The position numbers and the translations under genes were made by a program. Source: a virus. From it: a stretch of DNA of 64,000 nt. Positions 26,601-47,920 of the stretch are shown here, one piece after another. The DNA is taken from IMG/VR virus record IMGVR_UViG_3300046535_000406, positions 32,001-96,000 of that record, one strand, 5' to 3'. Position 1 is the stretch's first letter. Each line of letters starts with the position of its first letter. The notes beneath the pieces are model-generated. The model saw nothing but the letters and a program-made list of their open reading frames with translations, made no database searches and had not been told where the DNA came from.

Positions 26601-28780
26601 CGCATCCACGTCAACTGCGGCCCGGGCAGGATCGGGTGCTCGGTGAAGATCGAGGCTCCGGCGGCGATCGTGTCGGGGATGCGCTGTGCCAGCGGTAGCT
26701 CGGCGGACACCGCGCCCAGCCCGTTCAGGAAGTCGGCCAGCCCCTGATTGACCAGCCGGTTGTCGAACTGAAGGCTGAGCCCGCGCTCTGCTGCGCTCTG
26801 AGCGGCCCAGCGGATGGCCGCCACGGTCATTTCCGGCTCGAAGGTGTGTGAAGACGCACCCGTCATCGCGCCGGTGATGAAGCGCAGGTTCTTGGCGTCC
26901 TCCTGATAGACGGCGGAGTAGGTGTTGTCGCCCAGCGCGAACTTCTGGACCAGCACCGGACCGACGCCCGGCTCGCGTATCCCATCCCGAATGTACGGAG
27001 CGTGCAGATCGGGCGGGTGCTTCAGCCACGCAAGCTCCTCGGGCAGGGCCAGCGCCGGGGCGTCAACGACGATCTGGGAGGCCACGTCGGTGTCCCACGT
27101 GAAGGCGTTCTGGTCGGCCACCGGCTGCTGCGACGGACCGTAGTCAGGCAGGTCGCCCAGCAGCGACGCCACCGGGATGGGCGTGCCGCAGGCGTCGGCC
27201 TCCTTGATCCACACGAGGTTGATCGGTCCCTCGGTGACCATGGACTCGGCGAAGTCGGAGATGCCTGCCAGCGGGTCGCCGCAGACGGTGTCGGGCACGT
27301 CGTACTCGAAGCGGCACTTGCAGTTGAGTCCGCACTGGGTGTGGCCGGAGCCCGGGAACAGGCCCATGCTCATCAGCGCGTCGTAGCTGTACGGGCTCAT
27401 GTCCGATAGCTCGATGCAGTCGTCGCAGTGGTCCGCGTCGCCCAGCGTCCACCAGACTTGGATGATCTGGCCCATGGGCGTCGGCGAGAACACGTGATCC
27501 TGACCGATGGCCGACTGCACGTTCGCCACGTCGGCAACCGTCTGGGCCGTGGGTGTGGCGCCCGTCACGGGCGCGATGTTGTCGCCCACTCGGAAGGCTG
27601 CGCGCTCGCCCGCCTGCGCGAGGGAGTGGAAGTCGTTCAGGGCACCGCCGACCAGCAGCGCCCGGAGCCACTTCACCGTGTCCGGCTGTGCGAGGTTCCA
27701 CGGGTTCAGGACGTTCTTCACGATCCAGTTCAGCAGGCCGCCCTTGGCGTGGAGCGCGGCATCTGCCGCCACCATGCTGTCGGTGATGTCGCCTTGGTTG
27801 TCGGCGCTCAGCTGGTTCGCGTTGCGAGCACCAGCGGCCCTGCGCGCTGCCCGCATGGCACGGAGAGCTTGGGCGTGCAGGATGGCGTTGACTCGGGCAG
27901 CGGCCTCCTGCGGCGTGATCCTCCCGGATTGGAGCAGCCGGGTGACCACGGCCAGCTGGTTGCGCACGGCGGCCTGAGCACTGGCGCTGATCTTGGCGAT
28001 GGCGGCCAGCAGCTTCCTGACTTGGGCCTGCTGCACCAGCGTCTGGTTGGCCTGTGCCAGCTTCGCTCGCTCAGCCGCGATGCGATCGAGGATGACCGGG
28101 ATTGACGTGTTCTCGGAGTCGGCCACCGCCCGAGCGAAGCCCTTGCGCATCACGTCGTCCATGCGCACGGCGACCGACTGCAACAGCAGGGCCTCCATGG
28201 CCGGGGCGTCCTTGGCCTGCTTGGGGTCCTTGCCGTTGGTGGTGGTGATCAGGCGCCCGATCAGGTCGCCCACGGAGCCGACCGGGATGACCGTCTCGGC
28301 GGGTGCCAGCCCGGCGGCCATGAGCGTGCGCTGAATGTCCTGCTGGTCCTGCGTCGAGAGCCGTGACAGGTTGCCCAGCGATCGCTTGCCGACGGTGTAG
28401 GCGTTGCTCGCCTGACGCAGGTAGGCCGCGCTGAGCGCCGCCGTGAACTGGGTGCTGGTCAGCGTGCCAGCCTGAAACTGCTCGATCAGCAGCAGCGCCG
28501 ACTCCACGAACTGGCGCACTGCCCGGGACAGGCGCTCATCGGCGCCGGGGTTGCGCTGGGCCGGTCCCCAGCCGATCACCGGCAGCCCTGCGCTCAGCGC
28601 GTAGGCGATCGCCTGAAGGTGGTTGATGTCCCGGTCCGAGGCGACGATGCCCGTCGCGTCCTCTTGGATGGCAACGTCGTACTGGGGGTCGTACCAGAGA
28701 GGATCACTGGCGCTTCGCAGCGCCTCGGTGATCTGTTCCAGCAGCGCCTCGGTGAGGTCCCGGTCAGTCTCCGCGACCAT
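8669..28780 (-). CDS. giant MuF-type (head morphogenesis) polyvalent protein, ~6,703 aa
   Basis: Directly after portal; likely ATG 28780 with GAGG SD. MuF-type Cys cluster WWTLGDADHCDDC...FPGSGHTQCGLNCKCRF (~27300-27460). Then zincin HEYGH (~26210), kinase NADGHGGN/IDKG (~25470-25550), zincin HEMGH (~24700), ART-like (~23550-23990), Nudix box GGVDLNETTAQAAVREAREEMG (~22800-22870), KOW/SH3-like arrays, second kinase NDDAHIGN/IDKT (~9885-9970), C-terminal ART-like EGEREI. Confidence 0.85.
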   Translation of the reverse strand: MVAETDRDLTEALLEQITEALRSASDPLWYDPQYDVAIQEDATGIVASDRDINHLQAIAYALSAGLPVIGWGPAQRNPGADERLSRAVRQFVESALLLIEQFQAGTLTSTQFTAALSAAYLRQASNAYTVGKRSLGNLSRLSTQDQQDIQRTLMAAGLAPAETVIPVGSVGDLIGRLITTTNGKDPKQAKDAPAMEALLLQSVAVRMDDVMRKGFARAVADSENTSIPVILDRIAAERAKLAQANQTLVQQAQVRKLLAAIAKISASAQAAVRNQLAVVTRLLQSGRITPQEAAARVNAILHAQALRAMRAARRAAGARNANQLSADNQGDITDSMVAADAALHAKGGLLNWIVKNVLNPWNLAQPDTVKWLRALLVGGALNDFHSLAQAGERAAFRVGDNIAPVTGATPTAQTVADVANVQSAIGQDHVFSPTPMGQIIQVWWTLGDADHCDDCIELSDMSPYSYDALMSMGLFPGSGHTQCGLNCKCRFEYDVPDTVCGDPLAGISDFAESMVTEGPINLVWIKEADACGTPIPVASLLGDLPDYGPSQQPVADQNAFTWDTDVASQIVVDAPALALPEELAWLKHPPDLHAPYIRDGIREPGVGPVLVQKFALGDNTYSAVYQEDAKNLRFITGAMTGASSHTFEPEMTVAAIRWAAQSAAERGLSLQFDNRLVNQGLADFLNGLGAVSAELPLAQRIPDTIAAGASIFTEHPILPGPQLTWMREMPEMPSFRALAAEPHVSNANAIVQTAFEPSPEHPMADAMALFPGMKNLAGEAFSSAQWDMLRAKAELFDQLGIDRSLNSALSVIESSDGVGYAGRAFSDGRINLEPEMGLAGKITVSNTFGDAWAHEYGHLVSNRLSQRLGADRWNTFKADFRGDNLLKLKSYADTSDEEFWAEAFTAMTRPDYIPGTLAGDTEAWSLMREGGVWHTPEITFPVTKFGAFPTEQVLVDPSKWGTGGLLPGWKWGSADKLGKGTTPRVLLKDPTGQEFLLKPYGVSEEVAGSRVTTLFGLDAPPVARIAFGTGDNPWYAWQALVPRTAQSYWVRAPDAATLARVLGHDEERQLFGHGLVDYLIHNADGHGGNYLYDSGRVWAIDKGYGFDRLGSGLTPSLTDFYERADASMFGRIDHSPDLLLRLTPQDVATTLDRFDGVTDQQLLNAVGDALTTDAAKADLLSRKHNLRQSVEDLFADRTTIADHPSAAWKAWLDDGGTFPYTPPADLGATVSEVTNVSELVARMEARYPGTDWSGLLEVPFDTGKVLAKRMDMLFSRFGTIPSFRGVALRTYAPGKGTIAEVARIDPNVPGSKVFLNRAMFTDSTALQKAFLRDKANVPFSVGGQIATNADEWASDVVTHEMGHEWLGMNLHSRLGADRYAPVRQELEPWLKSTLWPALKTTHISKYARSNQHELWAETFAGAIEGMNQPETKQLAAIFDKFYPAKPADPLLGFSPQDLPSVNLTDVMKPKDTGFFKNNTPQAVRDAVLALPEAEREGATKLIRNMATLWKKDVSVVPTDWQVWLIKGSTFEAPTEVLPAAATLWDKKLTPQWSKPEVPLPPAPTAAEFAPEGSAGIVTQLLNPKDEWWLEPNLKPIADAAEWNAVDTGAINKSLRAGEHVADQSVDGTMVKGKDLLDYYDRLSTQAETTAPGILYRGQSLKAGALGKVGDSYVDKAIPFATSSGNKAYNFAIPGGVVQRMHVPKGFRLSAGEATYQVQLPRNLRWRIVRVTDGKELGLAENVSVVDLVPDTGVVPGYQYTGVPFKSFTAPPKPDTPFDGLTFKIDEKAPVLEPGTTVEPIPVEGIAPLNTPPVDWTGHVPEEPPLPEGAVADWQLKDMREAADKAWLRWEAVQSGEAKYAITWSQAESDAAKKAGLFEQKIGSQYYAAKSKADLDALDKAVKGGLDTNSDAFWKDTLGYSQKQLDTIDAYDVAKKGTHSLRAGVVLVEPDGRMWIISPRNRWAGYENTFAKGGVDLNETTAQAAVREAREEMGFSVELDKYLGDFTATDNGSITRYYVAHRTGGGPAWAKTIKETYSVRLGTPSEVRPVLLRYDKPDSRDTKVLDSYLEQAGLPPVAPPITEPPARLLGMSPDDVSGGSPFLHEQLGYDPQIAEASAGVWTPTSMPTGLMKVELPGGPDGTSSVFFRDDEAAKTRRWVLTAFKNDSGVLVAAADPAMAQLRANAMLAMVTNLPKGWDLSIEGSMGFGKADFALLGIPGEVPGFGKTLLIGNGDAVKVAKIMADPTALSADAPTLTLTPAVTDTLAAKLGPADPTIAVGQIVGTNTPTHFATHGVEAPADPFFETYGVAKPAWDTSLFVSEGKAPDEVLSSVHWKIGTTDQPINLFYPNAASSFVRMGVPEWKVTGIETRRAILLKEILRQADKGMEVEVTVSTTETAKLADLFTVLGSKSEGGSWRLDAPQLQLLRKATDQNVSITSLLPPPGITTAAMHPAAQAKSLDQTLGHVVTATPNKLSAQGTTGIGEKWGFDQHEAYNFVNGTGTGIPTPDGPDLKSHPQKQVWTTSKGGDVEFYWDTSPNGNLRLNQVITGENVSEPDVAAALVGQLQYFAGVMQNPALYGVNHLAVRIDDAVMNVLGDKTKQMLTAAGLKPSSVLGGWILSRPNTIGLVHSLLNDLTDVAAVASVAPAAFAIGDTVLHATYGIGTVIDAVAGGTFYVKFPSVTSYFLADQLKPIVKAITSLKPGDMVHTLDNKPALIASISADGQKALVKIGFGEQTFSIADLSLAHQWQIGDLVNYLGNEGSITKIEPDILFLKTTADGKLFATEPWNANLTFIGSQPAWEVGDTLVNGAGVKGAVTFVHADGFIDVHWATGTSPSIHVDPNATTLGVPLTKTGSLGAPTAPAAPSAAGFRVGDKVQSGGLSGTKGVIAAVFPDAGKVTVTWDSGITSTAFDPTHPNVMLKHVEPSATFKVGDHVANMWDATGTITNVADGKVGITWDISPGAGAGLLIDPTTVGLKHVPDVGVTQPPLKVGDTVIEQISGKGQMVTVQTIDPVGTLALVELPDGSTTWMAVSSLVKPGFSSPAWAVGTATPVAAVTTFVQGDVVKTAFGVGKVNKVLPGDVIEVTLPSGAYKSFTVGELSSVAPQVGDAVIHPTLGHATITKIDTGITPVQIQVKAVGSEAWAWANPDNVVKVGDKLQHGAIVQTIDANQVIAVTGGAKFTSPVSEVQKDLKLGKYPGLTPGTGAVTTAAEPWKVGDQALWQPPGFAHPEQVTIQAVSPSGLITVKGAAANAFPVAPTELARVPAATTEPFKVGDAVLVTKGAAFSGQVGSITHVGLLSSGETYYDVALPGAPYVSFKAEELAPAPGTAPGVMAPGGVPAGITVGAKVEIEGLTGTVTQIAPNGILTIAVDTGGSTTAYGIGDAKVVMVQHGPPLRIDGKVHISGTGVSSLDGQDGIISAIHPNGTYAVTKLDGATAQDVSAKNLHPFLTWNVGDTALLPSGTKVEIKSITGLDFYGATVQYADGHIDKWPVWALVKPAGAAPTPVVPTNPFKIGDHVTTPSGSSGVVSEITPPQGVSGGMIVMKLPDGTSLVTSPATLKMTRPPGAVGGLFQKLGVSKAEFDKGWQTQLATGESAYQVKPVGGAIGGLYASMKKNLQGDLVLYSIGGTTLGSDASYLAALSGIASFPLDPLKIAPKNLIVPTSFLNAMPTLSDLMKQAGAVESQYGWLTLTAAQATDLATKLSTDTQLITVGSLAAGGTKVAGSIDFAGWATEDIAQMAAAIGAIPDTLALGGGALSLSWKAGKFDIGGTLDYPPNATKPMRILNLTSPIAMQNTTFMVVTQYAGESLSYGQKLIYEDQALSVIDEHWKNMLLDHYNGSLDLSGSQTRIILPYEDAQQLAKDIKQASGIASPQALPVPPQTGVLTGATLAVPNPVTVGAYDPLTASLYTVQYEKSVSGHSLLSGANTTMKQTHYGTGAIDGGTAEWRRIGNRLELWQTTGDQLGVFAAQMRKFNDYMDATPSLTHLNLKGPILEPGPVRTWLEEAGWDPSQKLLKSDVDQIVSDLDSEVGAATNAVPVTLAFGSVPGYDPAVVDNFAMHWGVETNEKAAYLSGANTSVKHVVWGGGSSLDYRRLGNRVELLKLTAPSEHIADNVAFAFIQHAADLFDKTPSLYRLRIDSDAFLATSLSMRDTLKAYGGVLSKTNDMAFKPEDVQAIRDKLVADGQAPTIVTVAPPPVAPTFSTLGTIEGYDPQAIALASIPDIEQTIHPVHLAGTANKALKETIYGDGNQALKVQWRRIGQRIEVSSAEGDYTPTLLLAHMKRMAEAMETTPGIEYTVVRASIVGGMPLDLRNLFEVAYGTAATKGDIKMGRLDAEALLKDLKADEVKAKAAPGIAPTIQSAPKPVPATTVASSYAAGDHIVWGKGLNGFVTSVDHNGKLSVTSVSGTTFKLKPEDVTPYTATTPNVVFPGSKAGGYNLGDQVQWGKPSLGTPMQTGTVTQISQSGELTITTQSGAVVHKAATNPNLSKVAPAVSFAKGVIEPPPTTLAVGDKVKFVGSGPPTYEVMAVKPNGLIDVKDSDGNLWADMNGEHAVKVGVVPAFTPIPPEGLKVGDWALKPDGKYAKVMHTFDNGNVQLSIGNTFAPGDIVPAGSVTKVAEPTKQAAFSIGDQVVLPNGKVDVIASIDGVDEYHVAGAPGLPFFGKDMLLAKPAEPAGLKVGDIVDHMNGNSAYKGGTVVAINDVSKTANVKWPGFGGAQGLESPQVNLKLVGAPPPVLAKVGDEIVVKPGGGDATGDVATYGGQMGTVNYVSLNGQMMDVTMLDGSTGTFAQNEVIVSAKAGTLTPAAVPSPLTPKAGDTVSVNGKTGTVMGTHGIVNGEMTWGVEFPGEPVWGYFPTSQLSAAVGPKVGGKVTVKAIGGAFDGETGTITAISPDGLDIEVILNDEHATQVTFEPSELENANPAPFRIGEHVNYGGQNLTVTKLFPVTGNVQAMGVDGTPFVLVPESVNKGWITATTPAPKFAVGDKVLTNDYGIGTIAQVNSATVEVSFDPLTSPNAPSSKIYNPAKLTPKPQIKVGDSVLTYGGDEGVVNYLSPDGLTAHVTTMTANLTQETKDLTLVKVQPGFHQGDWVTVPTGQTGKIAYVTDDGTKANVTLGTAGVGSGTGTLTVKTELLKPAAAPKYAIGDKVTFTDAGNQPITATVTQLNQPSGMVIVTSDVTGYPLLKAESDLTPFVAPEPVPATFVVGDKVKWTPTGTSGVVTNVSDNAVTVKWEGSGTVSTAKGGPGSAYASIVKPVPSAGETYVPKPGDTVAQPLYGTGTVIEKTPYSPTAMVDFGANGKQLVGISTLTKVEPGTVATVKASTAPAGLKVGDQVTHPSFGTGTVTEVSSGSTVLVDWDTYPKSWTNVAFLTPTGVNVPKVVAPTLSKAALSAHKLAVGDWVLKQDGNYGKIVKVFKNGKAKVTIQSYGSGANIPMSQLSYVQTWPASEVAVGDTVVYYTGGKPYVVTEIPDTGYYLKALYSGNTTGNVQQLGKTSVTIVQKGVGNLETGDPVFASGFGLAEVVSVDSTVNPATVTVALEDGTTQTLVGQDIKPIPKLWKAGDIGQLPSGKVGTVTNVSTDTITLDVGGNPASAAIPDLKAPEPPANPLKTGDFVMTPKGQMGVVTNAASPSGLLVNVAPEGLPPVVETYNQLLLKQLPQPWKVGDYALLPNGVNAMITSISPVGDVTLSMKGSSVIQTATLDQLKASPYAPNPWKFGDKVITPQGNGTVTSTTMSTVSVKLEDGTPVTMVPGALKAAPIVPYVPNAKLITPNSPLYVPPVSAQSLSQVAQGPLIPASSRLDTLLGYDHSEMIATHHLGASEAALPGPQQIVPGTKLPQTIQTATYTVSGGNQVKTLYAVSTTGSLVSLVGAESLGATAKEVNDATWSELLDLAQKTAQRVDEDGNVMAASRLYVIDAVLDAHPGMKDLLLRAGGTDFRVRPAEGQGGGFFDALGPGVRLEGPQAETLANALLANTEDPLLQGQVLAAIPKPPQLVDLPKGVLANQPIKIMGGTPDNLWLAGGETIRANGLRAVSSWAGGKVEAEWLRTGPIMEWTNLTIASGTTEAEVTASTVRMLHSLLSNIAATPGTVLEVDQQVLSANPALRDLLLRYKGAEAATTSRAWIRVTADRANMMRQDIEAEMGASSAAGTVATPIVAPTIWPVPQDLKLLSAKGLGGQSPKAAFIDSQGNEWMFKIGASGRGARTDVAVNQLAGLLDLRTPPVKQYTLEINGKMTNGALQKLVPDIEHVKSPGELTPDQTTEFFQQSVLDWLTANDDAHIGNWMVSQSDGHLWGIDKTRSWVGMGGKFDTLDPANEGQGGEMGLLPMWSMFWRDARKNPALLANVDPKAIARTLGHLEAMSDQQFLQIIQPVLNDWKGLRQKSYDAFREAALLRKNQVRGDYQTFFASEVKAAMAGPKGADVPQSWRDWLLQDGGVFRLQLTYDEQHIDKMAEWDRDLLPSPTTDPLKEARRLLDPSSDVPGRPSKSSMQEALGYVHSYSGSGMSGEKTVEKMGSARTYGAGLIASKTDADAYAYASKINQWAVLHATFDPRYENSSVQWIKDIRNAYDPATGTWLWVRNVADTTDAQAYYERLSRLGYPSGRGGSLGLSAGFVQDAGVMITAKMNLENFYATSFVNPSWFQSTEGEREIIARDLQLPQIIRLSKYDGSMWNNEARKAGMDPWEYTKNYSGPVVQNSTSSGW
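11520..15660 (-). repeat. protein-level array of ~24 KOW/SH3-like small beta-barrel repeats inside the giant protein
   Basis: Units begin (F/W/L)x(V/I)GD.V followed by G.(G/V)TV..V, about 50-60 aa each; counted by eye. Confidence 0.75.
18110..20840 (-). repeat. protein-level array of ~16 KOW/SH3-like repeats inside the giant protein
   Basis: From FAIGDTVLHATYGIGTV to FKIGDHVTTPSGSSGVV; counted by eye. Confidence 0.75.
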
Positions 28781-30839
28781 ACGTCGCCTCGGCAGCATCT
28801 GCGGCCTGCCGTGCAATCTCTACCAGACGGTGGACGCGGACCCGCTCGTCCGGCGGAGCCCACGACTCCTGAATGGGAGGCGCGGTGTCCTGCTTGACTC
28901 CGGCCTTCTGTGCCGCCGTCGGCATCATGCCCGGCACCGGCGAGAGCTTCGTCGGGAAGCCGCCCTGAGCCGCCAGTGGCGTCAACAGCGACTGCGGGTC
29001 GATCGGCTGTGGGCCGGTGGCGCCCTTCATCATGCCCTCGGGCAGCGGCGGGAACAGGCGGTCCATCAGCTGGTCCACGTCCTCGATTTCGAGCGCGACC
29101 ATGGCGATGGACAGGACCCACTTGCCAGCCTCGGGGTTCTGAAGCGGCAGCATGTCGTAGAGCGCCTTCAGGGCCGTGAAGTAGGCCGCAAGGTCCTTCT
29201 TGATGATCGGCGGGAAGACGACGCTCACGTACCAGTCGATCGGCTTGCTCGGCCCCGGGTCTTGGTCCGACAGGGCCGTGAAGACCATCGGCTGGACGGC
29301 AGGCGGCGGCGGCGGCACGAACGGCTGGGGCGGGCCACCCGGCGCGGCGGGGTCGGCAGGCTTGGACGGATCGGCAGTCGCCTTGGCAGGGTCGGCGCCG
29401 TTCACCTTGGCGCTGTCGCCCTTCACGTGAATGTTGATGTCGCCCTCGTGCAGTTGCACCGGCGAGCCTGCGCGACCGGCAGGCGGTCCACCTGCGCCGA
29501 CGGGTGCCGTGGTCGGACCCGGGTTCAGCTGAGGCGGTCCAGCTGGCTGTGCGGACGAGGTGTCAAGCACCTGCTGCGCCGTCATCGACCGCTCGCTGTA
29601 TTTCGTGGAGTCGTCGCGTGGGCCGAGCTTGCCAGCGTCGTGAGCCGTCTCCAACGCGAAGGTGACGATGTCCGACATGATGTCGCCCAGCCACTTCTGC
29701 CACGACTCGTACATCTTCAGGAGCGGAAGCTCCATGGCGGTCGCGGTCGCGAGGTTGGCGTTGGCCTCGTCGCCGAAGTAGTGGTTCGGGATGCCGCCCA
29801 TGCCCGAGCCGCCCATCATGCGGAGGATGCGCTCGTCGGCCAGCGCGTTCGTGCCGCCGGTGTCGTTCTTCATCCATTCGAGGGACGAGTAGTCGTTCTC
29901 CACGATGGTCGAGCCCGGCGCCGGAGCAGGGTTGGTGTCGTAGCCGGTGGCGCTCACCTGCATTGACGACTGAAGCCGGGCGACCTCGGCGGCCACATCC
30001 TGAGCCGTGCTGTTCTTGCGCTTCTTCTTCCACGCGAACGTGGCAGCTGCGTCAGTGATCGTGGAGCGGTTCTCCATGAACCGCTTGTGCGCGTTGACCC
30101 AGTCGAGCGCGGCCTCTATCTCGGACTCGCCCATCTTCGACTTGCCACGGCGGCAGAGCATGACCAGCCCGTCCTCGACCGCCTTGGGCGCGGTCTGGCC
30201 CTTGGGGTCCAGAGGAGCGTCGTTGCGCCACTCGCGATACCAGATGAAGTCGTCTGCCGTGGTGGCGGAGTAGGAGCCAACGTTGAAGTCGTAGCTGCCG
30301 CCCAGCTTGCGCACCTTCACCCAGAGCGGGATGCGCCAGTTCTCGGGATCGGTGACCACGTCCTCGATCAGCAGCGAGTCGATCGAGCCAAGCTCGACCT
30401 TGCCTTCATCGGTGTCGGGGAACATGACCAGCACTTGCAGGCCGTCGGTGAAGGCACCCTTCAGGAAGTCGGACTGGGCCATGTAGCCGAAGAACGTCTG
30501 CTGGTTCACCGGGTTCTGGACAAGCTCGTCAACGATCTTCGCGACACGGGTCTTGTTGGCGGCGGAGAGAGTCACGCCGCGCCCGATGGTGTAGTTCACG
30601 AGCAGGTTGGACGCCTGCTTCACGAGCGGGCTGCGCCGGGCTGCGCGTCGCGCACGGCGGATCGTCGTGATCCGCTCGTCTCGGGTCAGGTACGTCTCGT
30701 CGCCGGAACGGTCGTACGAGAGGTTCGTCCAGTTGGCGTCTTCGAGAGCGCGCTCGACCGTCAACAGGGCTTCGCGAATGCTGACCGGCTTGGGTCCAGC
30801 GAAGGCGGGAGCGCCGTTCGGCTGCACGGTGAGTCCCAT
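28764..30839 (-). CDS. portal protein
   Basis: Likely ATG 30839 (MGLTVQ). SPLVKQASNLLVNYTIGRGV, DPEN, G.SEI...DW, GGIPNHYFGDEANANLATATAMELPLLKMYESWQ and FPPI are typical portal motifs; Pro-rich insert near C-terminus; precedes MuF. Confidence 0.88.
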   Translation of the reverse strand: MGLTVQPNGAPAFAGPKPVSIREALLTVERALEDANWTNLSYDRSGDETYLTRDERITTIRRARRAARRSPLVKQASNLLVNYTIGRGVTLSAANKTRVAKIVDELVQNPVNQQTFFGYMAQSDFLKGAFTDGLQVLVMFPDTDEGKVELGSIDSLLIEDVVTDPENWRIPLWVKVRKLGGSYDFNVGSYSATTADDFIWYREWRNDAPLDPKGQTAPKAVEDGLVMLCRRGKSKMGESEIEAALDWVNAHKRFMENRSTITDAAATFAWKKKRKNSTAQDVAAEVARLQSSMQVSATGYDTNPAPAPGSTIVENDYSSLEWMKNDTGGTNALADERILRMMGGSGMGGIPNHYFGDEANANLATATAMELPLLKMYESWQKWLGDIMSDIVTFALETAHDAGKLGPRDDSTKYSERSMTAQQVLDTSSAQPAGPPQLNPGPTTAPVGAGGPPAGRAGSPVQLHEGDINIHVKGDSAKVNGADPAKATADPSKPADPAAPGGPPQPFVPPPPPAVQPMVFTALSDQDPGPSKPIDWYVSVVFPPIIKKDLAAYFTALKALYDMLPLQNPEAGKWVLSIAMVALEIEDVDQLMDRLFPPLPEGMMKGATGPQPIDPQSLLTPLAAQGGFPTKLSPVPGMMPTAAQKAGVKQDTAPPIQESWAPPDERVRVHRLVEIARQAADAAEATYGRGD

Positions 30840-30982
30840 CACCAGCACCTGAAGTGCGCCCCATCCTGAACGTCGAAGCTCGGCACGCCCGGATGGGGCA
30901 GAACGCCGCTCCTCAAGAACCGGGGTTGCCGGTCGCGGGGAAAGCCTATCACGGGCGTCCAGACTGCTGGTACTGTGCGCGC

Positions 30983-31210
30983 ATGACCCGCCCCCATCCA
31001 CGCCAAGCGGACGCGCTTGCGCTCGCCTCGGGCATCGCCATCGTCTCCGTGGCCCTCATTGCCGTCGCAGACATCGTCGCCCACGGATCACTCGAACCGG
31101 CGGTGATGACGCTCGTGGCCTCCACGATCGCGCCTCTGACGCCCGCCCTGATCATCCGCTACGGGATCAACCCGAACCGTAGCGGGCACGAGCAGAGCCC
31201 GCCCCAGTGA
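30983..31210 (+). CDS. small two-TM membrane protein (counter-oriented)
   Basis: TACTGT 6 nt before ATG (leaderless-type); two hydrophobic helices. Confidence 0.5.
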   Translation: MTRPHPRQADALALASGIAIVSVALIAVADIVAHGSLEPAVMTLVASTIAPLTPALIIRYGINPNRSGHEQSPPQ

Positions 31211-39729: not shown

Positions 39730-41459
39730 AGGATTGGGTTCCTCCGGTCATACAGGGCGATGCCAACGAGCGCCCCGGGGATGCCGCACAGCAGACCGAG
39801 GATCAGGCCAACGATGAACGCGACGCCGGTGCTCCACGAGCCGATGCCGCCGGTGAGCGTCATCAGCAGCAACTCGACCAGCCAAGCGAACAGGCAGCCG
39901 ATCAGGGCTCCCCCCATCACGTAGGCGGCGTACCTCACAGATCGGCCCATGGGCGCTGCCCGGCGTATCGGCACTTGGCGCCGGGGTGGAGGTCGTGCCA
40001 TGCCCGGTGCACTGACGGCTTGGCCGTGCCCTTCACCGGCTGGTCGTCAAGGTCGGGCTCGCCCATCATCGTCACGATGGTCCACGCCAACGCCAGCGAC
40101 GGCTCGGCCATCCCATTGGCTTCCAGCGCCGTGGCGATGTCGATCAGGGCGTGCCACGGAGAGCCCGGGGCAGCATTCCGCAACGCCTCGATCAGCCAGT
40201 CCTTGTGCTCGGCCACCGGGCTCGCGGTGTAGAAGCCCATCCGCTGGGGGTTGCGCAACTGCATCAGGGTGACGAACGCCTCGGCTCGCCGTCGGCACGT
40301 CACGCAGTCGGCGGCATCGCCGGTGTGATGGCGATCGAGGAAGTGGAAGGACGCCGCCACGTCCTCGATGCTCAGGCTCACCAACAGGCTCCGTTCGACC
40401 CGGGCCTGCCCACTGCGCCACTCGCACTTGCAGCCCTGCATCGAGCAGCGCGAGCCACGCGGGTGGTGGTGGTGATCCTCGATCACGCAGCTGCCGCACA
40501 GGTCCTCGAACGCGGTCATCGCTTTGGGTTCTCCCTAGCCAGCACGGTCATGTCGCCGTTGTCGTCAGCGCCGACGGAGGCGTTCGGATACCACTGGGAC
40601 ACGGCCTGAAGGATCGCGGCGGAGCAGCCCATGTCGATGGGCAGGTGGAGCGTCACCAGTGGACGGGCCACCACGCCCCGCGCCTTCAGGTCGCGGTCAA
40701 TCTCCTGCCGGTGCCGCTTGGTGGGCGTGCTCATTGCGCAGCCAACGCGATGGCCTTGCGGACAGCGCCTGCGATGGCCTCGGATGCCTCCATGATCCAG
40801 ACCTCGCGCAGGTGGGCCTCCAACTGTTCCGACTCGTCGTCAGGCACGTCGATGGGGCGCTCCTTCGGCCCCCAGCCGCAGTCGCAGGACACGTGCTCGT
40901 ACGCCCAGTCGATCCGGATGCCGTGCTTCACGTCAGCCATCGGTCGGCTCCTTCACGGTCGGCTCCTTCACGTTGCGCCATACGTCAGGCGAACGCTGCG
41001 CCCAGTCGAGGACGTTCCGGTACAGCAGCTTGCCGACCACCTGATCGAACGAGGACTGCTGCCAGACCGAGGCCCCGCGCTCCTGCCCGCAGGGACAGGT
41101 GTACCAAGCCTCGGTGACGTGCTCGACGGACAGGATGCCGCTCACCTCGAAGGGGATGACGCCCGGGTCATGGACCTCGGACCGGCGCACGGTCAGCGGG
41201 TGGTAGAGCCACGCGCAGCGGAGTCGGCGGAGTCGGCGCCTCATGCGGCCACCAGTCTCAGCGCCACGTCACGCTCGGGATCGAACACGGCCATGACGAT
41301 CAGGTCATCGGGCAGGTCGAGCGTCGCCATCAGGTTGCGCTCGAAGAACTGGGAGTGGCCGCACAGGCAGGGATCGCTGTCGCCGTACCCACCGAAGCGG
41401 GCGGGACACGGCTGGTCGCCGTGGGCTCGATGTGCGCAGCTGGGGCAGGAGGGGAGCAA
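39726..41459 (-). CDS. run of six small coupled hypothetical genes (39726..40001, 39935..40519, 40516..40734, 40731..40940, 40933..41244, 41241..41459)
   Basis: Start/stop overlaps; several Cys/His metal-binding motifs; one membrane protein; downstream of promoter 41571-41599. Confidence 0.5.
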
Positions 41460-41570
41460 CGGTTACCTCGGTCAGTGCTAAGCGCGGTCCCAGAGCCCTC
41501 GAAGTGGAGCCACCGCCGTTCTTCCCGGGGGATGAATGGTGGTTCCTGACTCTCAGGACCGCGTCCAGAG

Positions 41571-41602
41571 AAGGTACAGGAAGATGTGCAGGAAGTCAAC
41601 AG
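41571..41602 (-). promoter_or_regulatory. phage promoter motif
   Basis: CTGTTGACTTCCTG...; TTGACT-N17-TACCTT. Confidence 0.7.
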
Positions 41603-41613
41603 CTAGGTTTGGT

Positions 41614-41641
41614 CCGGGTGCCGCTCGACGGCGGCACCCGG
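41614..41641. terminator. perfect 11-bp hairpin
   Basis: ccgggtgccgc-tcgacg-gcggcacccgg just upstream of the promoter. Confidence 0.55.
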
Positions 41642-42000
41642 CTGCACCACATGGACACCGCTCGTGCTTGCATCCTCTCGCGACCGTCGAGTCCGGAGGC
41701 TGGACTATGGGCACGTGCTGGTCCGTACCACGCCCGGGTGGAGCAAGCGACCAACCACCGTCACGGGCCGTGTCAGGGCAGACGGTGGGGCTTCCCGATC
41801 GACGGCTCGCCCCTGCGCAGTGTGCCCGCGCATCATACATGAGGTCAACAGGTATGATGCCCTCGCGAGGCTGTCCGGCTAAGCGCCTTCGGGCGTTACG
41901 GTTAGGAGGGTGGCGGGCAGTGACGGCCACGTCCCCGTGAAACATCGGGGCTCCGTGAAGGCCATGGCACGCGGTGACGTTGTGCGCTGTAGCTGCCGGA

Positions 42001-43449
42001 TCAGCCTCGCAGGATGATGCCGTCCACTTCGGCGATCTGGGACTCGTGGAGCGCCTTGCGGGCGATGCCCTCATTGGCGGCCCACTGGTCGGCGTTGCGC
42101 AGCAGGGCGACAGCTGGCATGTCCACCCGGAGCACCGGCACCCGGTAGTCGGCAGCCGTGCTCATGTCGTGCGCGATCGAGGCGGCCCATTGGTGGTGGC
42201 CGTCGATCACATAGTTGTCGGCGGAGATGAGCACCGGCTTCATCGGCTGGCCGCTGCCGTGCCCTTCGAGCGAGTCCAAGAAGCCAGCCGTCTTGGCGAC
42301 ATTGACTTCATTCTGGGAAGGCTTCAGGTCCTGCGGTCTGATCCGATCGCTGGTCACAGCGATGCCATCGTCGCGCAGCCCGTTCAGGTAGTCGTTCACC
42401 TTGGTCGCCGGTATCTGGGGCATCTCGTCACGTGGGATGCCCAGCGACGGGCCGAACGTCTCGTTGCCGTCCACCCTCAGCTTCGTCAAGTCGAGCGGAG
42501 CGCCATCGTGGGACTGGGACGCCTGAAGTGTGGGCTTCAGGTCGGACCGGGCGACGTTGGCGTCCTTCCCGGCAGCCAAACGCTGGATGGCCTCGGACGG
42601 TGAGTGGGCCGCGTGTCCCCCGGCACCAGCTGATCCGCCCAGCCACGCGCCATAGAAGTGGCCGTCTTCCGACTCCTTGACCGGCACGAAGCTCACCGTC
42701 CGGTGGTCCATGGGTCCGCCGTGCACCGCCGTGTAACCCCGGGTCGGGTAGCCGTTCCGCCCGGCTGCCGCCATGACGGCGTCGATGAACGCCTTGGCCC
42801 CACCCTCGTAGCCGCCTGAGCCGTACAGCATCCCGTCCGCATAGGCGTCGGCAATGTCTTCGCTGAGCGATCCGCCGGTGATCGAGCCGTTGCCCTGCAC
42901 GGTGAACAGGCCCGGGACGTTCCAGTGGTTCTCTCCGACCTTGTATTGGTCCAGCACCGACTTCACGTCCGCGTAGGCAACACTCGTTCGGTGCCCGGCC
43001 TCGTGGTACATCAGGTTCATCAGCCGGTTGTTGCGCTCCTCCGGCGTCTCGCTGATCCGCCCGCCGGTGCCCAGCACGTTCGACCCGAGGGTGATGTTGC
43101 GATCCGTGTTGTAGCCCGCATGGCCCACGATGGCGCCTCCGCCGGGATGGCCCTCGTCGTGTGCCGCCGCAGCGTTGATCGAGCCGAGACTGCCCGTGAT
43201 CACGATGCCCGGGGCCTCACCGTTCTGAAGCTGCTGGTCGGTCATCGCCCACGGCTTGGTCTGGGGCCAGCCGTTCACGTCCTTCCTGAGCGCCTGAGAG
43301 GCCGGGAAGTCAGCGAAGCGGTCCTTGGTCGCCGGGTGACCACCGGCTGAGGCGCTACCGCCCGTCCAAGCGCCGTAGAAGTGATTGTCGTCGTCCGACT
43401 CCCGGTAGCGACCCATCGCCGCCTGAATGTCGTCGCGAATGCCGCTCAC
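42001..43449 (-). CDS. two-module effector: zincin-like metallopeptidase + ParB/Srx-like domain, each preceded by an HFYGAW tag
   Basis: LMYHEAGH...SEDIADAYA; GIPRDEMPQI, DLKPSQNEV, PVLISADNYVIDGHHQWAA; tags at 43366-43383 and 42643-42660; GTGA-coupled. Confidence 0.75.
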   Translation of the reverse strand: MSGIRDDIQAAMGRYRESDDDNHFYGAWTGGSASAGGHPATKDRFADFPASQALRKDVNGWPQTKPWAMTDQQLQNGEAPGIVITGSLGSINAAAAHDEGHPGGGAIVGHAGYNTDRNITLGSNVLGTGGRISETPEERNNRLMNLMYHEAGHRTSVAYADVKSVLDQYKVGENHWNVPGLFTVQGNGSITGGSLSEDIADAYADGMLYGSGGYEGGAKAFIDAVMAAAGRNGYPTRGYTAVHGGPMDHRTVSFVPVKESEDGHFYGAWLGGSAGAGGHAAHSPSEAIQRLAAGKDANVARSDLKPTLQASQSHDGAPLDLTKLRVDGNETFGPSLGIPRDEMPQIPATKVNDYLNGLRDDGIAVTSDRIRPQDLKPSQNEVNVAKTAGFLDSLEGHGSGQPMKPVLISADNYVIDGHHQWAASIAHDMSTAADYRVPVLRVDMPAVALLRNADQWAANEGIARKALHESQIAEVDGIILRG

Positions 43450-43643
43450 GCGATCGCCTTGTTGACTTCGTCCATGGACACCCGGTCGATGTCGGCGCCG
43501 GTCACCAGCAACTCGATCAGCCGGGGATCAGGGACCCACTTCTTGGACGCCCAGTCCCAACGCTCAGCCGTGGAGCCGTCATCGGCTCGCCGGTAGGCGA
43601 CCTCGACCTTGCCGTGGTTGTCGTGGATCAGGTAGCCGATCAT
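43446..43643 (-). CDS. candidate immunity protein for the upstream alarmone-synthetase toxin
   Basis: 65 aa, ATGA-coupled to the toxin stop; Y..R....ERW.....WVPD......G....VS.DEV pattern. Confidence 0.6.
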   Translation of the reverse strand: MIGYLIHDNHGKVEVAYRRADDGSTAERWDWASKKWVPDPRLIELLVTGADIDRVSMDEVNKAIA

Positions 43644-44770
43644 GGGTTGCGCAACTGCACGCCACTGGGCGGCCACCCGCCGGGGACCGGCACGGTGTTC
43701 TGGTTGGCCTCCATCTGAAGCCACAGAGACGCCCTTTCGTCAGGGCTTGACGAGGTCCGCCACGCCTCGTAGAGCACGTGCTGCGAGCGCGCCGTCGCGA
43801 CGGACTCCGGCGTGTGGAACTGCAACTCGAAGCGAATGTCGGTGCCCGGCTTCTCGAAGACGGCGTTGACGCCCTGATAGACCGCCGGTGGTGGCTCATG
43901 GTCCCAGAAGTTCTTGGGCGCCTTGCCGCCCAGTGGGGCGTAGCCCTTCCGAAGCAGGTCGGTGTAGGCGCTCTGGAAGGTGTCCCGGTACGTGGAGTCG
44001 TCAGCCACCATCGTGTAGCGGAGGCTGTCGTTGATCCCGCCCGCCGCCTCCGGGATGGTGAGGTTCTTGTCCCGGGCGTCAGCGGCGATCTTCTCGGCCA
44101 GTCGGTCCTCGCCCTTCAGCCGGGCGTCAAGGCCCTGCATGGTCGCTCCGACCTTGCCGGAGATGGTCTGAAGGTCGGCTGTTACCTGCGGCTCGTTCTT
44201 CACCGCCGCCAAGCGCATCGCGTGGGCGGCTGCCGCCACCGTCGTCATGCCAGCTGGGATGGGATGGCCGCCCTTCCCGCCCCACCACGCGCCGTAGTAA
44301 TGGTCGTCGTCGCTGGCCTCGTGAAGGGGCTTCCACTGCCAGTCCCACGCCTTGCCAGCATCGGTCAGGGCCGGTGTCGCCTTGGCTGCCTTGTCCGCTT
44401 CCGCCTTGGCTGCCTTGGTGAGCATCGCCGACACGCTGTTCGCGACATCGGGTGCCCAGATGCCTTGCGAGTGCGCGGTCATGTACCAGATGTCACCGAC
44501 ACGATTGAACGTGGCTGACGCCTTGCCCTTCGTGATCGTGACTGCCTGCCCGTCCGGGTGGACCTCCACCTTGTCCGGGTGAGCGGCCAGCCGCTTCTGC
44601 TCGTCGTGCCCAGCGTGCGCCGACAACTCGTGACCCATCGCCTCCGGGTGTCCGCCGGACGATGCCTTGCCGCCTTCCCACGCTCCGTAGAAGTGATCGC
44701 CGCCCGACTCGACCAGACGGTGCGTGTCCATCTCGGTGGCGATCGCCTCGCGGAGGCTGGGCTCCCTCAC
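43640..44770 (-). CDS. RelA/SpoT-type nucleotidyltransferase toxin (Tas1/Apk2-like) with two HFYGAW tags
   Basis: Likely GTG 44770 (coupled to the stop of 44767..44979). RLK...KI...DSLRYT...KNFW...YQGVN...FELQFHTPES...HVLYEAWR is the small alarmone synthetase signature. Confidence 0.8.
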   Translation of the reverse strand: MREPSLREAIATEMDTHRLVESGGDHFYGAWEGGKASSGGHPEAMGHELSAHAGHDEQKRLAAHPDKVEVHPDGQAVTITKGKASATFNRVGDIWYMTAHSQGIWAPDVANSVSAMLTKAAKAEADKAAKATPALTDAGKAWDWQWKPLHEASDDDHYYGAWWGGKGGHPIPAGMTTVAAAAHAMRLAAVKNEPQVTADLQTISGKVGATMQGLDARLKGEDRLAEKIAADARDKNLTIPEAAGGINDSLRYTMVADDSTYRDTFQSAYTDLLRKGYAPLGGKAPKNFWDHEPPPAVYQGVNAVFEKPGTDIRFELQFHTPESVATARSQHVLYEAWRTSSSPDERASLWLQMEANQNTVPVPGGWPPSGVQLRNP

Positions 44771-44979
44771 GACACGAGCCTTGACTGGCGTGGGGCGATC
44801 AGCGTCGGGTTGCAGCAGCAGGCGTAGGCGTTCATCACCGCACAGATCGGCTGGTGCATGACGACGAAGTTGCCCTGATCGTGGTTCTCGCCGGTCCGGG
44901 GCCAGACGCTGAGCAGAGCGTCCAGCGTGGAGTCGTACTCGCCCGCCGCCGGGAGCACATCGATCGACGTGTGTTCCAC
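44767..44979 (-). CDS. small hypothetical protein
   Basis: Coupled to the toxin gene; H...C...CCCNP motif. Confidence 0.45.
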   Translation of the reverse strand: MEHTSIDVLPAAGEYDSTLDALLSVWPRTGENHDQGNFVVMHQPICAVMNAYACCCNPTLIAPRQSRLVS

Positions 44980-45003
44980 CCGGGCACGATAGCGTGATCG
45001 GGA

Positions 45004-46047
45004 CTAGAGCGCCAGCCCGCGTTGCAGCCAGTGGAGCCGGTCCTCGGCGATCAGCACGTACTCGTGCTCGCGCTCGATGCCGATCCAGCGGTAGCCCTCC
45101 AACTCGGCGGCCACGCCGGTCGTCCCTGACCCGAGGAAGGGATCGAGGACCACGCCGTCCCGGGGCGTCACGAGCCGGACCAGATGGCGCATCAGGTCCA
45201 CCGGCTTGCACGCCGGGTGAGTGTTCTGGCGCATGGTCTTGCGCTCGTAGACCTTCTGGTCGGCGTCGCCCCAGTTGACTGCCGTGACCTTCGAGCTTCC
45301 CGTGCTCGCGACCGGCTGCGCTTCGCGGTCGGACAGGATCGGCTCCCGATCGGGTCCGGCTTTGGGCACGAGGAACATACGGGAGTAGTCGCCTCGCAGG
45401 ACAGGGTCGGTGAGCAGCAGGTTCGCGGGCCAGCGGTCCCCGACCCGTGCCCCCTCGATGTTCAGCGCGCCGGTGCCGGAGCGGAGCACATTGGCGGCGA
45501 TCGAGCCGGGGTGTGGCTTGCGCGCCATGACGATCGGCTCCCACGCTGGCTTCAGCGCGGTGCCCCAGCCTTGCCACTTCTGGGCGTCAGATGTGATCGC
45601 CACATCTGAGAGCACGTCGAAGTCCAGCTTCGAGCGGCCCTGATCGCCCTGCTCGACGTTCGTTGACGCCATTCCGGGTGCGCGCATGGTGCCGACCACC
45701 TCGCGCTGTGCGCCTTGGAGCCGGTCGATGTCCTTGGAGATGTTCCGGGACTTGGGGAAGCCCTGAGCGTAGGCCCAGCAGAGGGTGTCGCGAAGCTCCC
45801 AGCCAGCGTCCTCGATCGCCACCATCATCCGGTGGAAGGTGCGCGTGCCGCCGAAGGCGAGCAGGTAGGCTCCCGGCTTGGCGACCCTCAGCATCGCCGA
45901 CCACGTGGCCGGGTCGAAGGCGATGCCCGTGCTGTCCCACGCCTTGCCCATGAAGCCAAGCTCGTAGGGAGGGTCTGTGGCGATTGCGTCAATCGAGTCC
46001 GCTTCCATGTCCGCCATGGCCGCGATGCAATCCGCCTCGATGATCAC
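45004..46047 (-). CDS. DNA N6-adenine/N4-cytosine methyltransferase (beta class)
   Basis: TDPPY (motif IV) precedes VLDPFLGSGTTG (motif I); GWGTALKPAWEPIVMARKP, HPACKPVDLMRHLV; likely GTG 46047. Confidence 0.92.
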   Translation of the reverse strand: MIIEADCIAAMADMEADSIDAIATDPPYELGFMGKAWDSTGIAFDPATWSAMLRVAKPGAYLLAFGGTRTFHRMMVAIEDAGWELRDTLCWAYAQGFPKSRNISKDIDRLQGAQREVVGTMRAPGMASTNVEQGDQGRSKLDFDVLSDVAITSDAQKWQGWGTALKPAWEPIVMARKPHPGSIAANVLRSGTGALNIEGARVGDRWPANLLLTDPVLRGDYSRMFLVPKAGPDREPILSDREAQPVASTGSSKVTAVNWGDADQKVYERKTMRQNTHPACKPVDLMRHLVRLVTPRDGVVLDPFLGSGTTGVAAELEGYRWIGIEREHEYVLIAEDRLHWLQRGLAL

Positions 46048-47920
46048 GGGAGTGTCCGGTAGACCAGCGCCCAGACGACCGCCGTCAGCACGACAACGAG
46101 GACCAAGCTGGCAGCGCCAACGGTGTTGTCGTGTGGCAGGCCGAGCAGGTTGATAGCCGTCGCCACGACGGCGCCCACGCCCATCAGGACGAGCCCAGCG
46201 CACCATCCCCAGAGGTCACGGGTCATTCGGTCGTCCCCAGACCCGGCAGAGGCTGCTCGGACTCAGGCGTCGGGATCGGATCGTCGGCGTGCCTCCACGG
46301 GATCACCGGGCGCAGGAACGATCCTGCCAGCCGCCGACCGCATCGGATCGTCCGCTTCTCGTTCAGGAATGTCTCGCAGAACCAGTCGCCCTTCTCGTGG
46401 CCGCCGGGCGCGTAGTGCGGGTCGATCACGTGCTCGGTCAGGGCAGCACCTCGATCGAGGAACGGTCCACGTCGTACTGACCGTTGATGCCGTCGAGCAT
46501 GATCAGGGCGCGGATGCGCTTCGCCCCGGCCCCAGAGCCGTCGTAGACAGCGAGCACGGTCCCCATGACCCCGGGCTTGGCGACCCGCTCCGTCGCCCAC
46601 TGGCGATGGCCGAGCGGGATCGCCCGGGCTACGCGGCAGCGCGGCCCGGGAGGCGGCTTGGGGAACGCAACGACATCGCCCACCTCAGACGATCAGGCCC
46701 GTCTTCCGCTTGGGCTTCAGGCCGAAGTAGCGCACGTCGTACTGGCAGTGGAAGCAGCGGGCGACGTTGCGCTCCACCGCCGGGTTGGCGTCGTTCGGGT
46801 CCATGCCCTTGGGCACGGAGGCGTACCACTGTTCGAGCGCCCCGGGCTGGGCCACGTTGGTGTGGGTGACAGGGTCAATCTCGACCTGCTCGATCGTCGG
46901 TGCCCAGATCAGGTAAGCGTCGCAGCACTTGCAGTAGAGCGGAGGACCCGACAGATCGAGGCTGTTCTGCTGGAAGATGGCGGCGGCCTCGCCCAGCCGT
47001 TCACGTGATCCACGGCAGTAGCCGGTGCACGGAGGGATGATCGGGCGCTGGTCGTACTCAGCTGAGACGGGCATCAGTCGTTGTCTCCCATGGGCAGGTC
47101 GCCTTCCTCCCAGATCGCGAGAGGCACCTCGGCGAGAATGCGGGACTCCTCGGGCTCGGCGCCCTCGGCGATCAGCTTCGCCAGTAGCTCGTGACCGGCG
47201 TCAAGCGCCTTCTGAAGCATGTCGTCGGAGACTGGGACACCGGGCCTCACGAGCGCGCCGGTGCGCCGGTCGATCACCGGCATCTTCTCCATCGGGTCGC
47301 CCAGATACTCCCTGATCTGCTTCAGGCTGTAGCCGTCGCGCTGCATCCGGGCGGCGGCCAAGATCGTGTCCTGAGCCGACACCTTGGTCAGCTTGCCGGG
47401 CTCACCGATGCGGTCGATCGAGAGCAGACCCATGGGCTCCTGACGAATGTGCTCGCCGGACACGCTGATCGTGCCGTCGGCGTTCTTCACGAGCCTCGGG
47501 CCACCGCGCCCGGGGATGATCAGTCGGTCCATGCGCCGTTCTCCTTGGCTGCGTCAACGAGGACGTGCAGCTGCTTCTGACCGGCTGGCCCGATCAGGCC
47601 CCACATCCGGTTGGCCTCCATCAGGTGGGCCGAGCAGGGCGGGCTGACGGCGGGCACACGGTGGGCCGCGACGCACAGGCGCCTCGCAAGCTCGACGTTG
47701 GTGATCTGGCCGCTCATATCATCCTCTCCATTGCCTTGGGGTCGAACACGACCAGCTGGTCAGGCGGGCACACGGGGTTCACCTCGATCAGGTCCAGCAG
47801 GCCGCCCGTCAAGCCGCGCTCCCGGAGGCTCTCAATGGTCGCAGCCGTGGCGTAGACATGAGCGCCATTGCGGATGGCCTCTCGGGCGCGCTCCCAGCGG
47901 GCTTCCTCGTCGGGGCTCAT
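46044..47920 (-). CDS. run of small hypothetical genes (incl. 46044..46226 membrane, 46438..46683, 46685..47074 Zn-finger, 47074..47532, 47520..47717)
   Basis: Coupled minus-strand ORFs with protein-like composition. Confidence 0.5.

Follow-up and report, generated by a model that had tools for sequence, protein, structure and literature searches.

A tagged alarmone synthetase and a candidate immunity gene on a putative capsid-loading carrier in an uncultured phage

Alarmone synthetase toxins are known on type VI secretion system (T6SS), type VII secretion system (T7SS), Sec and MuF carriers, and the purpose that they serve for a phage, as well as their route into the capsid, is a standing question. 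The same catalytic domain has been described on Sec, LXG, XopAD, MuF, DUF4157 and Rhs/PAAR export carriers (PMC12691689). The domain itself, the small immunity protein that binds it and the presence of alarmone toxins on phages are thus already published (PMC10083569, PMC12226406, PMC12691689, PMC5512222), and it is the carrier that is new in the locus described here. The locus belongs to an uncultured phage and lies in bases 32001–96000 of the linear 109,497-bp IMG/VR virus record IMGVR_UViG_3300046535_000406; this 64,000-nucleotide stretch is called the window below, and all coordinates refer to it. The record is 87% complete according to CheckV, has a GC content of ~67% and carries nearly all of its genes on the minus strand. 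The interval flagged in an earlier note on this DNA comprises two genes, gene A, in which an alarmone synthetase follows a short leader and two copies of a ~20-residue tag, and the small gene B. On balance, we favor the interpretation that A and B form a toxin/immunity pair of the Apk2–IapK type on a new carrier, with a toxin that enters the capsid, is cleaved by the head protease and is then injected, although we hold it with some reserve. The features of the locus are:

43640–44770, minus strand: gene A, 376 aa from a GTG start at 44770; leader, tag, module 1, tag, alarmone synthetase

44708–44770, minus strand: leader of gene A, residues 1–21, a predicted helix ending in L-V-E, with a candidate protease site after E21

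44645–44707, minus strand: first tag copy of gene A, residues 22–42 (SGGDHFYGAWEGGKASSGGHP), predicted to be disordered

44318–44644, minus strand: module 1 of gene A, residues 43–151, ending in L-H-E, with a candidate site after E151

44261–44317, minus strand: second tag copy of gene A, residues 152–170 (ASDDDHYYGAWWGGKGGHP), immediately before the synthetase domain

43643–44245, minus strand: SYNTH domain of gene A, an Apk/EAS-type small alarmone synthetase, residues 176–376

43446–43643, minus strand: gene B, 65 aa, untagged; candidate IapK-like binding immunity protein

42001–43449, minus strand: gene C, 482 aa; leader, tag, HExxH zincin module, tag, ParB-like module

44767–44979, minus strand: upstream open reading frame (ORF) orf70, 70 aa, function unassigned

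The GTG of gene A overlaps the TGA stop of the 70-aa ORF upstream (GTGA), the ATG of gene B overlaps the stop of gene A (ATGA), and the stop of gene B overlaps the GTG of gene C (GTGA). The four genes orf70, A, B and C are therefore translationally coupled, and gene C is a second tagged cargo gene within the operon of gene A. A public gene call starts gene A at ATG 44731 instead, which gives a protein of 363 aa.

The last ~200 residues of gene A constitute an active-looking pyrophosphokinase of the Tas1/Apk2/SaEAS type. All six motifs that the earlier note had read from the translation are present (RLK 217–219, DSLRYT 248–253, KNFW 286–289, YQGVN 298–302, ELQFHT 315–320, H.LYE 331–335) and sit on invariant or near-invariant columns of an alignment of 23 homologues. 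Searched against the PDB, the single sequence of gene A returned 8vx3 (SaEAS; E 1.7e-14, residues 163–365), and a profile of 25 homologues returned 8vx3 at E 3.7e-44 and Tas1 (6ox6) at E 2.8e-10. Residues 177–340 align with the C-terminal Rel-like part of XopAD effectors in NCBIfam (E 1.1e-22), a domain-level match that lies far under the cut-off. The AlphaFold2 (AF2) model of gene A has a predicted local distance difference test (pLDDT) score above 90 over residues 170–376, and its top Foldseek match is again SaEAS (8vx3, E 2.5e-12, template modelling (TM) score 0.79–0.81), followed by Tas1 (6ox6, E 8.4e-6), CapRel (E 1.2e-5) and RelP/RelQ. The SaEAS active-site residues named in PMC12691689 have clear counterparts: D121, R124, N169, E182 and Q184 align to D248, R251, N302, E315 and Q317 of gene A, and K154 aligns to K283, with K286 of the KNFW motif as the alternative; these columns, too, are invariant or nearly so in the 23 homologues. 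A tblastn search against phages yielded 45 records, and in all of them the match is to the toxin end of a MuF “minor head” protein from a Streptococcus or Pasteurellaceae phage. Residues 191–353 of gene A are 37–38% identical to these ends, S. pneumoniae phages included, and it is these ends that PMC12226406 describes as the Apk2 toxins. The matches in sequence, profile and fold and the conserved SaEAS active-site residues thus agree with the earlier placement of the enzyme in the Tas1/Apk2 clade. Its description as a stand-alone synthetase holds insofar as there is no MuF fusion, but gene A is not a bare synthetase, as it also contains the leader, the two tags and the ~110-aa module.

The phylogeny called for in the earlier note was derived by maximum likelihood from 79 synthetase domains (rows shorter than 150 aa were left out). 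The eight tagged synthetases form one clade, with a Shimodaira–Hasegawa-like approximate likelihood ratio test (SH-aLRT) support of 98, and this clade falls in that half of the tree which is phage-associated and in which the MuF-fused proteins and the Apk2 of S. pneumoniae are also found. Actinobacterial chromosomal and Streptomyces synthetases occupy the other half, apart from the tagged clade. The closest homologues of gene A (P0003–P0005, 41–50% identical) are single-module proteins with the order leader-tag-synthetase, and the synthetase relatives P0018, P0020, P0022, L012 and L014 carry the MuF domain PF04233. The members of a neighboring clade (P0007, P0010, P0011, P0017, P0019) display a Gly-rich motif, GNFGH[SA]GRPGERGGS, ~60–70 residues before the catalytic domain, which may be a second tag type with a role like that of the HFYGAW tag of gene A.

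Gene B, the 65-aa ATGA-coupled ORF that the earlier note had placed downstream of the synthetase, is very probably its immunity protein. A word-index homologue search with gene B found only gene B itself, and its relatives were obtained through synteny. When one genome was scanned for each prokaryote species, homologous synthetases turned up at 49 loci, and at most of these loci the synthetase is followed by a coupled ORF (at least 32 distinct ORFs of 60–111 aa, starting −20 to +52 nt from the synthetase stop). The family is characterized by an N-terminal Y-Y/F strand, an invariant Trp and a C-terminal I/V-S-x-E-E-A helix, and gene B aligns with it end to end. When a family hidden Markov model (HMM) was built without gene B, gene B scored 13.3 bits and ranked first among the 1520 open frames of the phage genome, and the best of 2000 shuffles of its sequence reached 9.6 bits. 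IapK of S. pneumoniae (69 aa, phage phiARI0462) scored 11.7 bits against the HMM of the B family, and hhalign placed the family and IapK in the same register (E 6e-4, probability 28%). Pairwise BLAST of gene B with this IapK returned only a short out-of-register segment with 7/21 identities, and the B-family profile found nothing meaningful in the PDB and Pfam, where Tis1 was not detected.

The strongest single item in favor of the immunity role is the synteny of a related metagenome contig, L062. Its polyprotein consists of tag, zincin, tag and synthetase, the last of which is 41% identical to that of gene A. An 86-aa ORF, which is 44% identical to gene B (E 1e-16), starts four bases after the polyprotein and is itself followed by a leader-tag-ParB gene, so that the gene order equals the A-B-C order of the phage.

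The association of the two proteins was also modelled. With the synthetase domain and gene B supplied as alignments, the predicted complex scored 0.86, compared to 0.24 for the best of three controls; the score mark is reached by 58/80 solved complexes and 2/110 mismatched pairs, counts that are rough since the alignments used here were our own. The runs agree in at least 50% of the contacts, the pLDDT of the partner is at least 85, and the predicted interface (Y298, G300, N302, K327, H331, Y334, R338) covers the conserved face around YQGVN. As a prediction, the model supports binding of the synthetase by gene B. The immunity role proposed in the earlier note is backed by the coupled-ORF family, the HMM rank and the L062 homologue, and the complex prediction passed its controls. 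The idea that module 1 of gene A might itself act as an IapK-like inhibitor in cis was dropped, as no ORF besides gene B scores against the immunity HMM. A search of the 109.5-kb record (87% complete) for an Aph1/HD_4 hydrolase gave neither an HD_4 match nor a match to S. pneumoniae Aph1.

Two arrangements on other contigs are recorded here in their own right. On contig JANNYB010000157.1 of an Acidobacteriota metagenome-assembled genome (L017), several tandem synthetase genes or fragments are each followed by their own 72-aa immunity-like ORF, which makes up an array of toxin/immunity pairs. The 108-kb contig CAVCUP010000006.1 contains two identical MuF-synthetase-immunity copies (L012 and L013) ~41 kb apart.

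The carrier of the gene A synthetase is built from a repeated unit, in which [LVI]-x-E is followed by the ~20-aa tag DDHFYGAW.GG....GGHP. The HFYGAW-type cores of the two copies are found at residues 26–31 and 157–162, and each of the two gene A modules follows one unit. Module 1 is a small helix/sheet domain in a model of moderate confidence; it has no sequence or structure relatives in our searches and no usable Atlas match. The phage has 12 such tags in nine genes: genes A and C have two each, a 769-aa head protein has one, and the remaining seven are spread over six genes that lie between the head and tail modules. Leaders like that of gene A are found at the start of five other tagged genes (M-x-D-S-I/V-...-A-A-M-x-R-I/V-R-E).

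A tag profile, built from 16 tags and run against 1.84 billion protein representatives (E ≤1e-3), identified 115 protein clusters with up to six tags per protein. Glu is found 5–6 residues before the His, and is followed by A/K/G/S, in 137 of the 153 tags surveyed in 113 proteins; P3 of this site is L/V/I/F/M in 132/137, and P2 is mostly Arg or Ala. Pfam assigned GNAT (11), Zeta toxin (10), lethal-factor-like peptidase (4), ADP-ribosyltransferase (3) and phage portal (3) domains to the 112 tagged proteins examined. The tag marks module boundaries of toxin-like enzymes. BLAST showed that in two portal homologues the portal domain is followed by tags within one polypeptide, and that the ParB module of gene C is present in twelve tagged proteins. 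Three polyproteins end in tag-synthetase, one of them being tag-ParB-tag-synthetase, and in PHROG 2859, too, a ParB part and a synthetase part belong to a single protein. In many tagged proteins the tag occurs only once, at the N-terminus, and a peptidase module is absent. The exact DNA pattern of the tag matches just one other IMG/VR contig, and a literature search for ‘HFYGAW’ found no paper that contains the tag.

Two head genes of the phage are relevant to the function of this unit:

3231–5540, minus strand: 769-aa head protein with one tag (5085–5180), a T4 gp21-like prohead serine protease domain (residues ~385–535) and a helical scaffold-like tail

28764–31001, minus strand: portal protein, which in two relatives has tagged modules fused behind it

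The 769-aa protein has a weak PHROG protease match, and Pfam reports nothing for its protease region; Peptidase_S77, proposed by the ESM Atlas with a score of 0.94, served as a lead only. His426 and Ser484 of the protease domain are invariant in 32 homologues, and orthologues of the protease occur on other contigs of 100–115 kb. The AF2 model of residues 385–600 (pLDDT 83.5) has T4 gp21 (5jbl) as its best Foldseek match (E 3.8e-4). In the VIA all-against-representatives search gp21 was found with a Z score of 10.0 and a root-mean-square deviation of 3.1 Å over 121 aligned residues, herpesvirus proteases being next (Z 7.6 and 6.0). Going by this model, the 769-aa protein carries a gp21-fold prohead protease.

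The site of T4 gp21 is L/I-x-E, with the cut after the Glu. In SPN3US, the gp21-like protease gp245 cleaves after A-x-E and prefers Ser at P1′ (PMC10052503). Because Glu is the residue after which gp21-type proteases cut, the hydrophobic-x-Glu site that precedes the tags fits cutting by the phage's own head protease, and we regard this protease as the putative processing enzyme of the tagged cargo. T4 uses a short N-terminal capsid targeting sequence (CTS) to load a set of unrelated internal proteins and the Alt enzyme (PMC3012670). In gene A, the leader and the tag, which are common to the head protease, stand in place of a MuF carrier, and gene A is therefore probably loaded into the capsid by an undescribed route. 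The suggestion of the earlier note that the HFYGAW tag is an alternative to MuF delivery is borne out at the sequence level: gene A has no MuF domain, the tag recurs in the gp21-like prohead protease and in the portal fusions of relatives, and a gp21-type site precedes it.

Apart from its protease domain, the 769-aa protein has an N-terminal domain of ~110 aa (5150–5480, minus strand, residues ~20–110), which also heads at least eight other tagged proteins (P0141, P0137, P0101, P0075, P0129, P0133, P0139, P0046) and matches phrog_19463, with Pfam PF06150 being found in two distant homologues. Directly after the portal gene, an uninterrupted ORF of 6715 aa (8669–28816, minus strand) encodes a Nudix domain (Pfam E 2.7e-9) and lacks the HFYGAW tag. 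It has a MuF-like Cys motif near residues 464–510, which is weakly supported (E 0.03 to one MuF region, no PHROG match), and PHROGs gave nothing in its first 900 aa. With this motif the phage seems to own a MuF-type carrier, yet the synthetase rides the tag carrier.

Domain identity, catalytic residues, A-B(-C) synteny, recurrence of the tag and the protease fold are established at the sequence or fold level. From these observations and the predicted A–B complex we infer activity, product, toxicity, cleavage, packaging, ejection and biological purpose, and we propose the following model. In the cell in which virions are built, gene B, translated from the same message, would form a 1:1 complex with the synthetase, cover its conserved YQGVN / H..Y..R face and keep it harmless. 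The tagged proteins (A, C, the products of the six genes of the head-tail region and the head protease) would enter the prohead via the leader, the tag or both. The gp21-like protease would then cut after each Glu, which would convert gene A into a leader peptide, a tagged module of ~130 aa and a tagged synthetase of ~25 kDa. The cleaved pieces would be ejected with the DNA into the next host, where the synthetase, now without gene B, would cause a burst of alarmone synthesis and an ATP drain before or until new gene B is made. More tentatively, and with the odds somewhat against it, this scheme can be generalized: the [LVI]-x-E site and tag may be an undescribed, portable cut-and-load signal with which one lineage of large high-GC phages directs free-standing or concatenated toxin and enzyme modules to the prohead, to be released there by its gp21-like protease, with the synthetase being injected early as a pulse of alarmone synthesis and ATP drain that newly expressed, untagged B switches off, an enzyme plus a timer for host takeover.

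Several observations weigh against capsid loading and injection of a neutralized toxin. Unlike the CTS of T4, the tag is located on the prime side of the putative cut and would be retained, and therefore the capsid address could be the leader, the tag or both, or the tag could be only a recognition element for the protease; the tag itself may be an address, a protease exosite or an ejection aid. The Glu site is missing from 16/153 tags (~10%), and three IMG/VR relatives (L009, L010, L011) have an acidic run (..D-E-D-D) before the tag and not hydrophobic-x-Glu, so the putative cutting site is not universal. The likeness of gene B to the characterized IapK is weak, as the hhalign probability given above indicates, and the complex score may partly be a memory of the fold pair because Tas1–Tis1 (6ox6) has already been solved. 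The model does not explain how gene B is released from the enzyme before or during packaging. Finally, the A-B-C operon is located ~12 kb upstream of the portal gene, beside a DNA methylase and small genes, outside the head module.

The last point would suit a different reading, in which A and B are a cytoplasmic toxin–antitoxin (TA) module of the toxSAS type that acts in the infected cell, for example in phage exclusion or host shut-off, with the toxin staying unpackaged and the tags being unrelated linkers. Like toxSAS pairs, the locus has a small ORF tightly coupled downstream of a toxic-type synthetase, the operon has a methylase gene and small, early-looking genes beside it, and CapRel is among the fold matches. 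We nevertheless consider this reading unlikely. The nearest relatives of the enzyme are Apk2 and the EAS proteins, not the tRNA-modifying toxSAS (8vx3 E 2.5e-12 versus 1.2e-5 for CapRel), its neighbors in the tree are MuF-fused, i.e. virion-associated, and some relatives have this synthetase at the end of polyproteins with several tags. The leader and tag, moreover, are common to the prohead protease and the portal fusions.

Alternatively, the site and tag may be a polyprotein processing signal only, cut by zincin modules in the cytoplasm or after injection and without any part in capsid addressing. HExxH zincin modules do occur within tagged proteins (gene C, the L062 polyprotein, P0032–34), the tag is found at internal module boundaries, and in the view of Iyer et al. 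2017 (PMC5512222) polyvalent proteins are processed into units by their peptidase domain. A P1 Glu with a hydrophobic P3, however, is the signature of gp21-type prohead proteases and not a documented zincin specificity (PMC10052503). In addition, the numerous tagged proteins with one N-terminal tag contain no peptidase module, and the tag is carried by the head protease itself and by the portal fusions. Processing by zincins, which we think improbable as the sole function of the unit, would also be compatible with packaging.

On the interpretation that we favor, that of an injected Apk2-type toxin, the synthetase would transfer pyrophosphate from ATP to the 3′-OH of adenine and/or guanine nucleotides, yielding (p)ppApp and/or (p)ppGpp. 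Apk2 makes (p)ppApp only, SaEAS makes both kinds, and VpEAS and AaEAS make (p)ppGpp only (PMC12226406, PMC12691689); motif swaps left the specificity of Apk2 unchanged (PMC12226406). Because the products of the relatives vary and these swaps had no effect, the product of gene A cannot be read from its sequence. A further alternative, which concerns the substrate only, is that the enzyme pyrophosphorylates the 3′ end of tRNA, as CapRel, PhRel and FaRel2 do, and makes no free alarmones; although the fold is common to the tRNA pyrophosphokinase CapRel and the synthetase motifs do not reveal the substrate, we find this very unlikely, as all characterized members of the closest clade (Tas1/Apk1, Apk2, SaEAS, VpEAS, AaEAS) use nucleotides (PMC12691689, PMC12226406) and neither single-sequence nor profile searches gave a sequence-level match to CapRel/PhRel-type enzymes.

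The surroundings of the operon are as follows. An N6/N4 DNA methyltransferase gene (45004–46206, minus strand; Pfam E 1.1e-33) lies 24 nt upstream of the orf70-A-B-C operon. Downstream of gene C, ~540 nt (41460–42000) contain no convincing gene by third-position GC. A simple promoter and terminator scan of 41000–47200 found no site. Pfam is silent on genes A, B and C, and PHROGs have nothing for orf70 or for a 72-aa ORF downstream. Megablast of 10 kb against phage and plasmid collections, tblastn of gene C against plasmids and a single-protein scan of viral contigs gave no match, and neither a tyrosine integrase nor a serine recombinase was found in the searched record (87% complete). An origin from a conjugative element, suggested by the giant ORF and the methylase, was dropped, as the record, which has portal, capsid and protease genes, is viral.

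The locus puts a known toxin and its antidote on a short, sequence-defined carrier, which recurs in more than 100 protein clusters. Beyond T4 and the jumbo phages, it offers a concrete signal for the loading and cleavage of phage-injected enzymes that can be put to the test, and the MuF-fused and tagged synthetases make up a natural cargo-swap set with which the effect of an injected alarmone burst can be addressed. If the tag is portable, laboratory work with phages could use it to fill capsids with proteins of choice.

The most similar described system is the MuF-borne Apk2–IapK pair. Both systems have a phage-encoded Apk-type synthetase (37–38% identity) and, directly after it, a gene of ~65–70 aa, which in Apk2 systems is the binding immunity protein IapK. 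The ORFs that follow the MuF-fused synthetases in L012 and L014 are among the family members more similar to gene B (23–25% identity). The carrier is where the two systems diverge: Apk2 has an N-terminal MuF domain (Phage_Mu_F), whereas Pfam finds none in gene A, which has a helical leader and [LVI]-x-E/tag units instead. Gene A also has a second module in the same gene and is not located beside the portal gene. Apk2 systems possess Aph1, an HD-type (p)ppApp hydrolase, as a second immunity gene, whereas none was found in the 109.5-kb phage record; and Apk2 has been described as tied to temperate phages, whereas no integrase was found in the incomplete phage record.

Tas1/Apk1, a T6SS effector of P. 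aeruginosa (6ox6), has the synthetase fold and the active-site residues in common with gene A. The adjacent small immunity protein Tis1 blocks the active site of Tas1 by binding (PMC12691689, PMC12226406), and gene B is likewise small and adjacent. Tas1, however, is delivered by a PAAR/T6SS tip and not by a phage, its identity to gene A is ~18%, and no sequence likeness was detected between Tis1 and the gene B family. SaEAS (8vx3; Ahmad et al. 2025, PMC12691689), the best match of gene A among solved structures, has a Sec signal peptide and no immunity gene, and the leader/tag carrier of gene A is absent from the list of carriers in that work. To the toxSAS enzymes (FaRel, PhRel, CapRel) gene A has no sequence match, and CapRel is a weaker fold match behind SaEAS and Tas1.

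As regards the carrier, the internal proteins IPI–III and Alt of T4, with their CTS and gp21 (PMC3012670), and the ejection proteins of SPN3US and phiKZ (PMC10052503) resemble the tagged proteins in having a short N-terminal leader that ends in hydrophobic-x-Glu and a gp21-fold protease, and in T4, as here, unrelated cargo has only the signal in common. Unlike in T4, the conserved Gly/aromatic tag of ~20 residues is located after the cut, so that the cargo would retain it. Further differences are that the site/tag unit is also found internally in polyproteins of up to six modules as well as on the protease and on portal fusions, that the capsid gene set of the phage is of the HK97 type and that a giant gene comes after its portal gene. 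The polyvalent proteins (Iyer, Burroughs, Anand, de Souza, Aravind 2017, PMC5512222), which are predicted to be injected effectors, draw on the same repertoire of RelA/SpoT, DdrB-type ParB, zincin peptidase and ADP-ribosyltransferase domains; in the phage described here, in contrast, this repertoire is split over genes A and C, its parts are delimited by site and tag, and the immunity gene lies between them.

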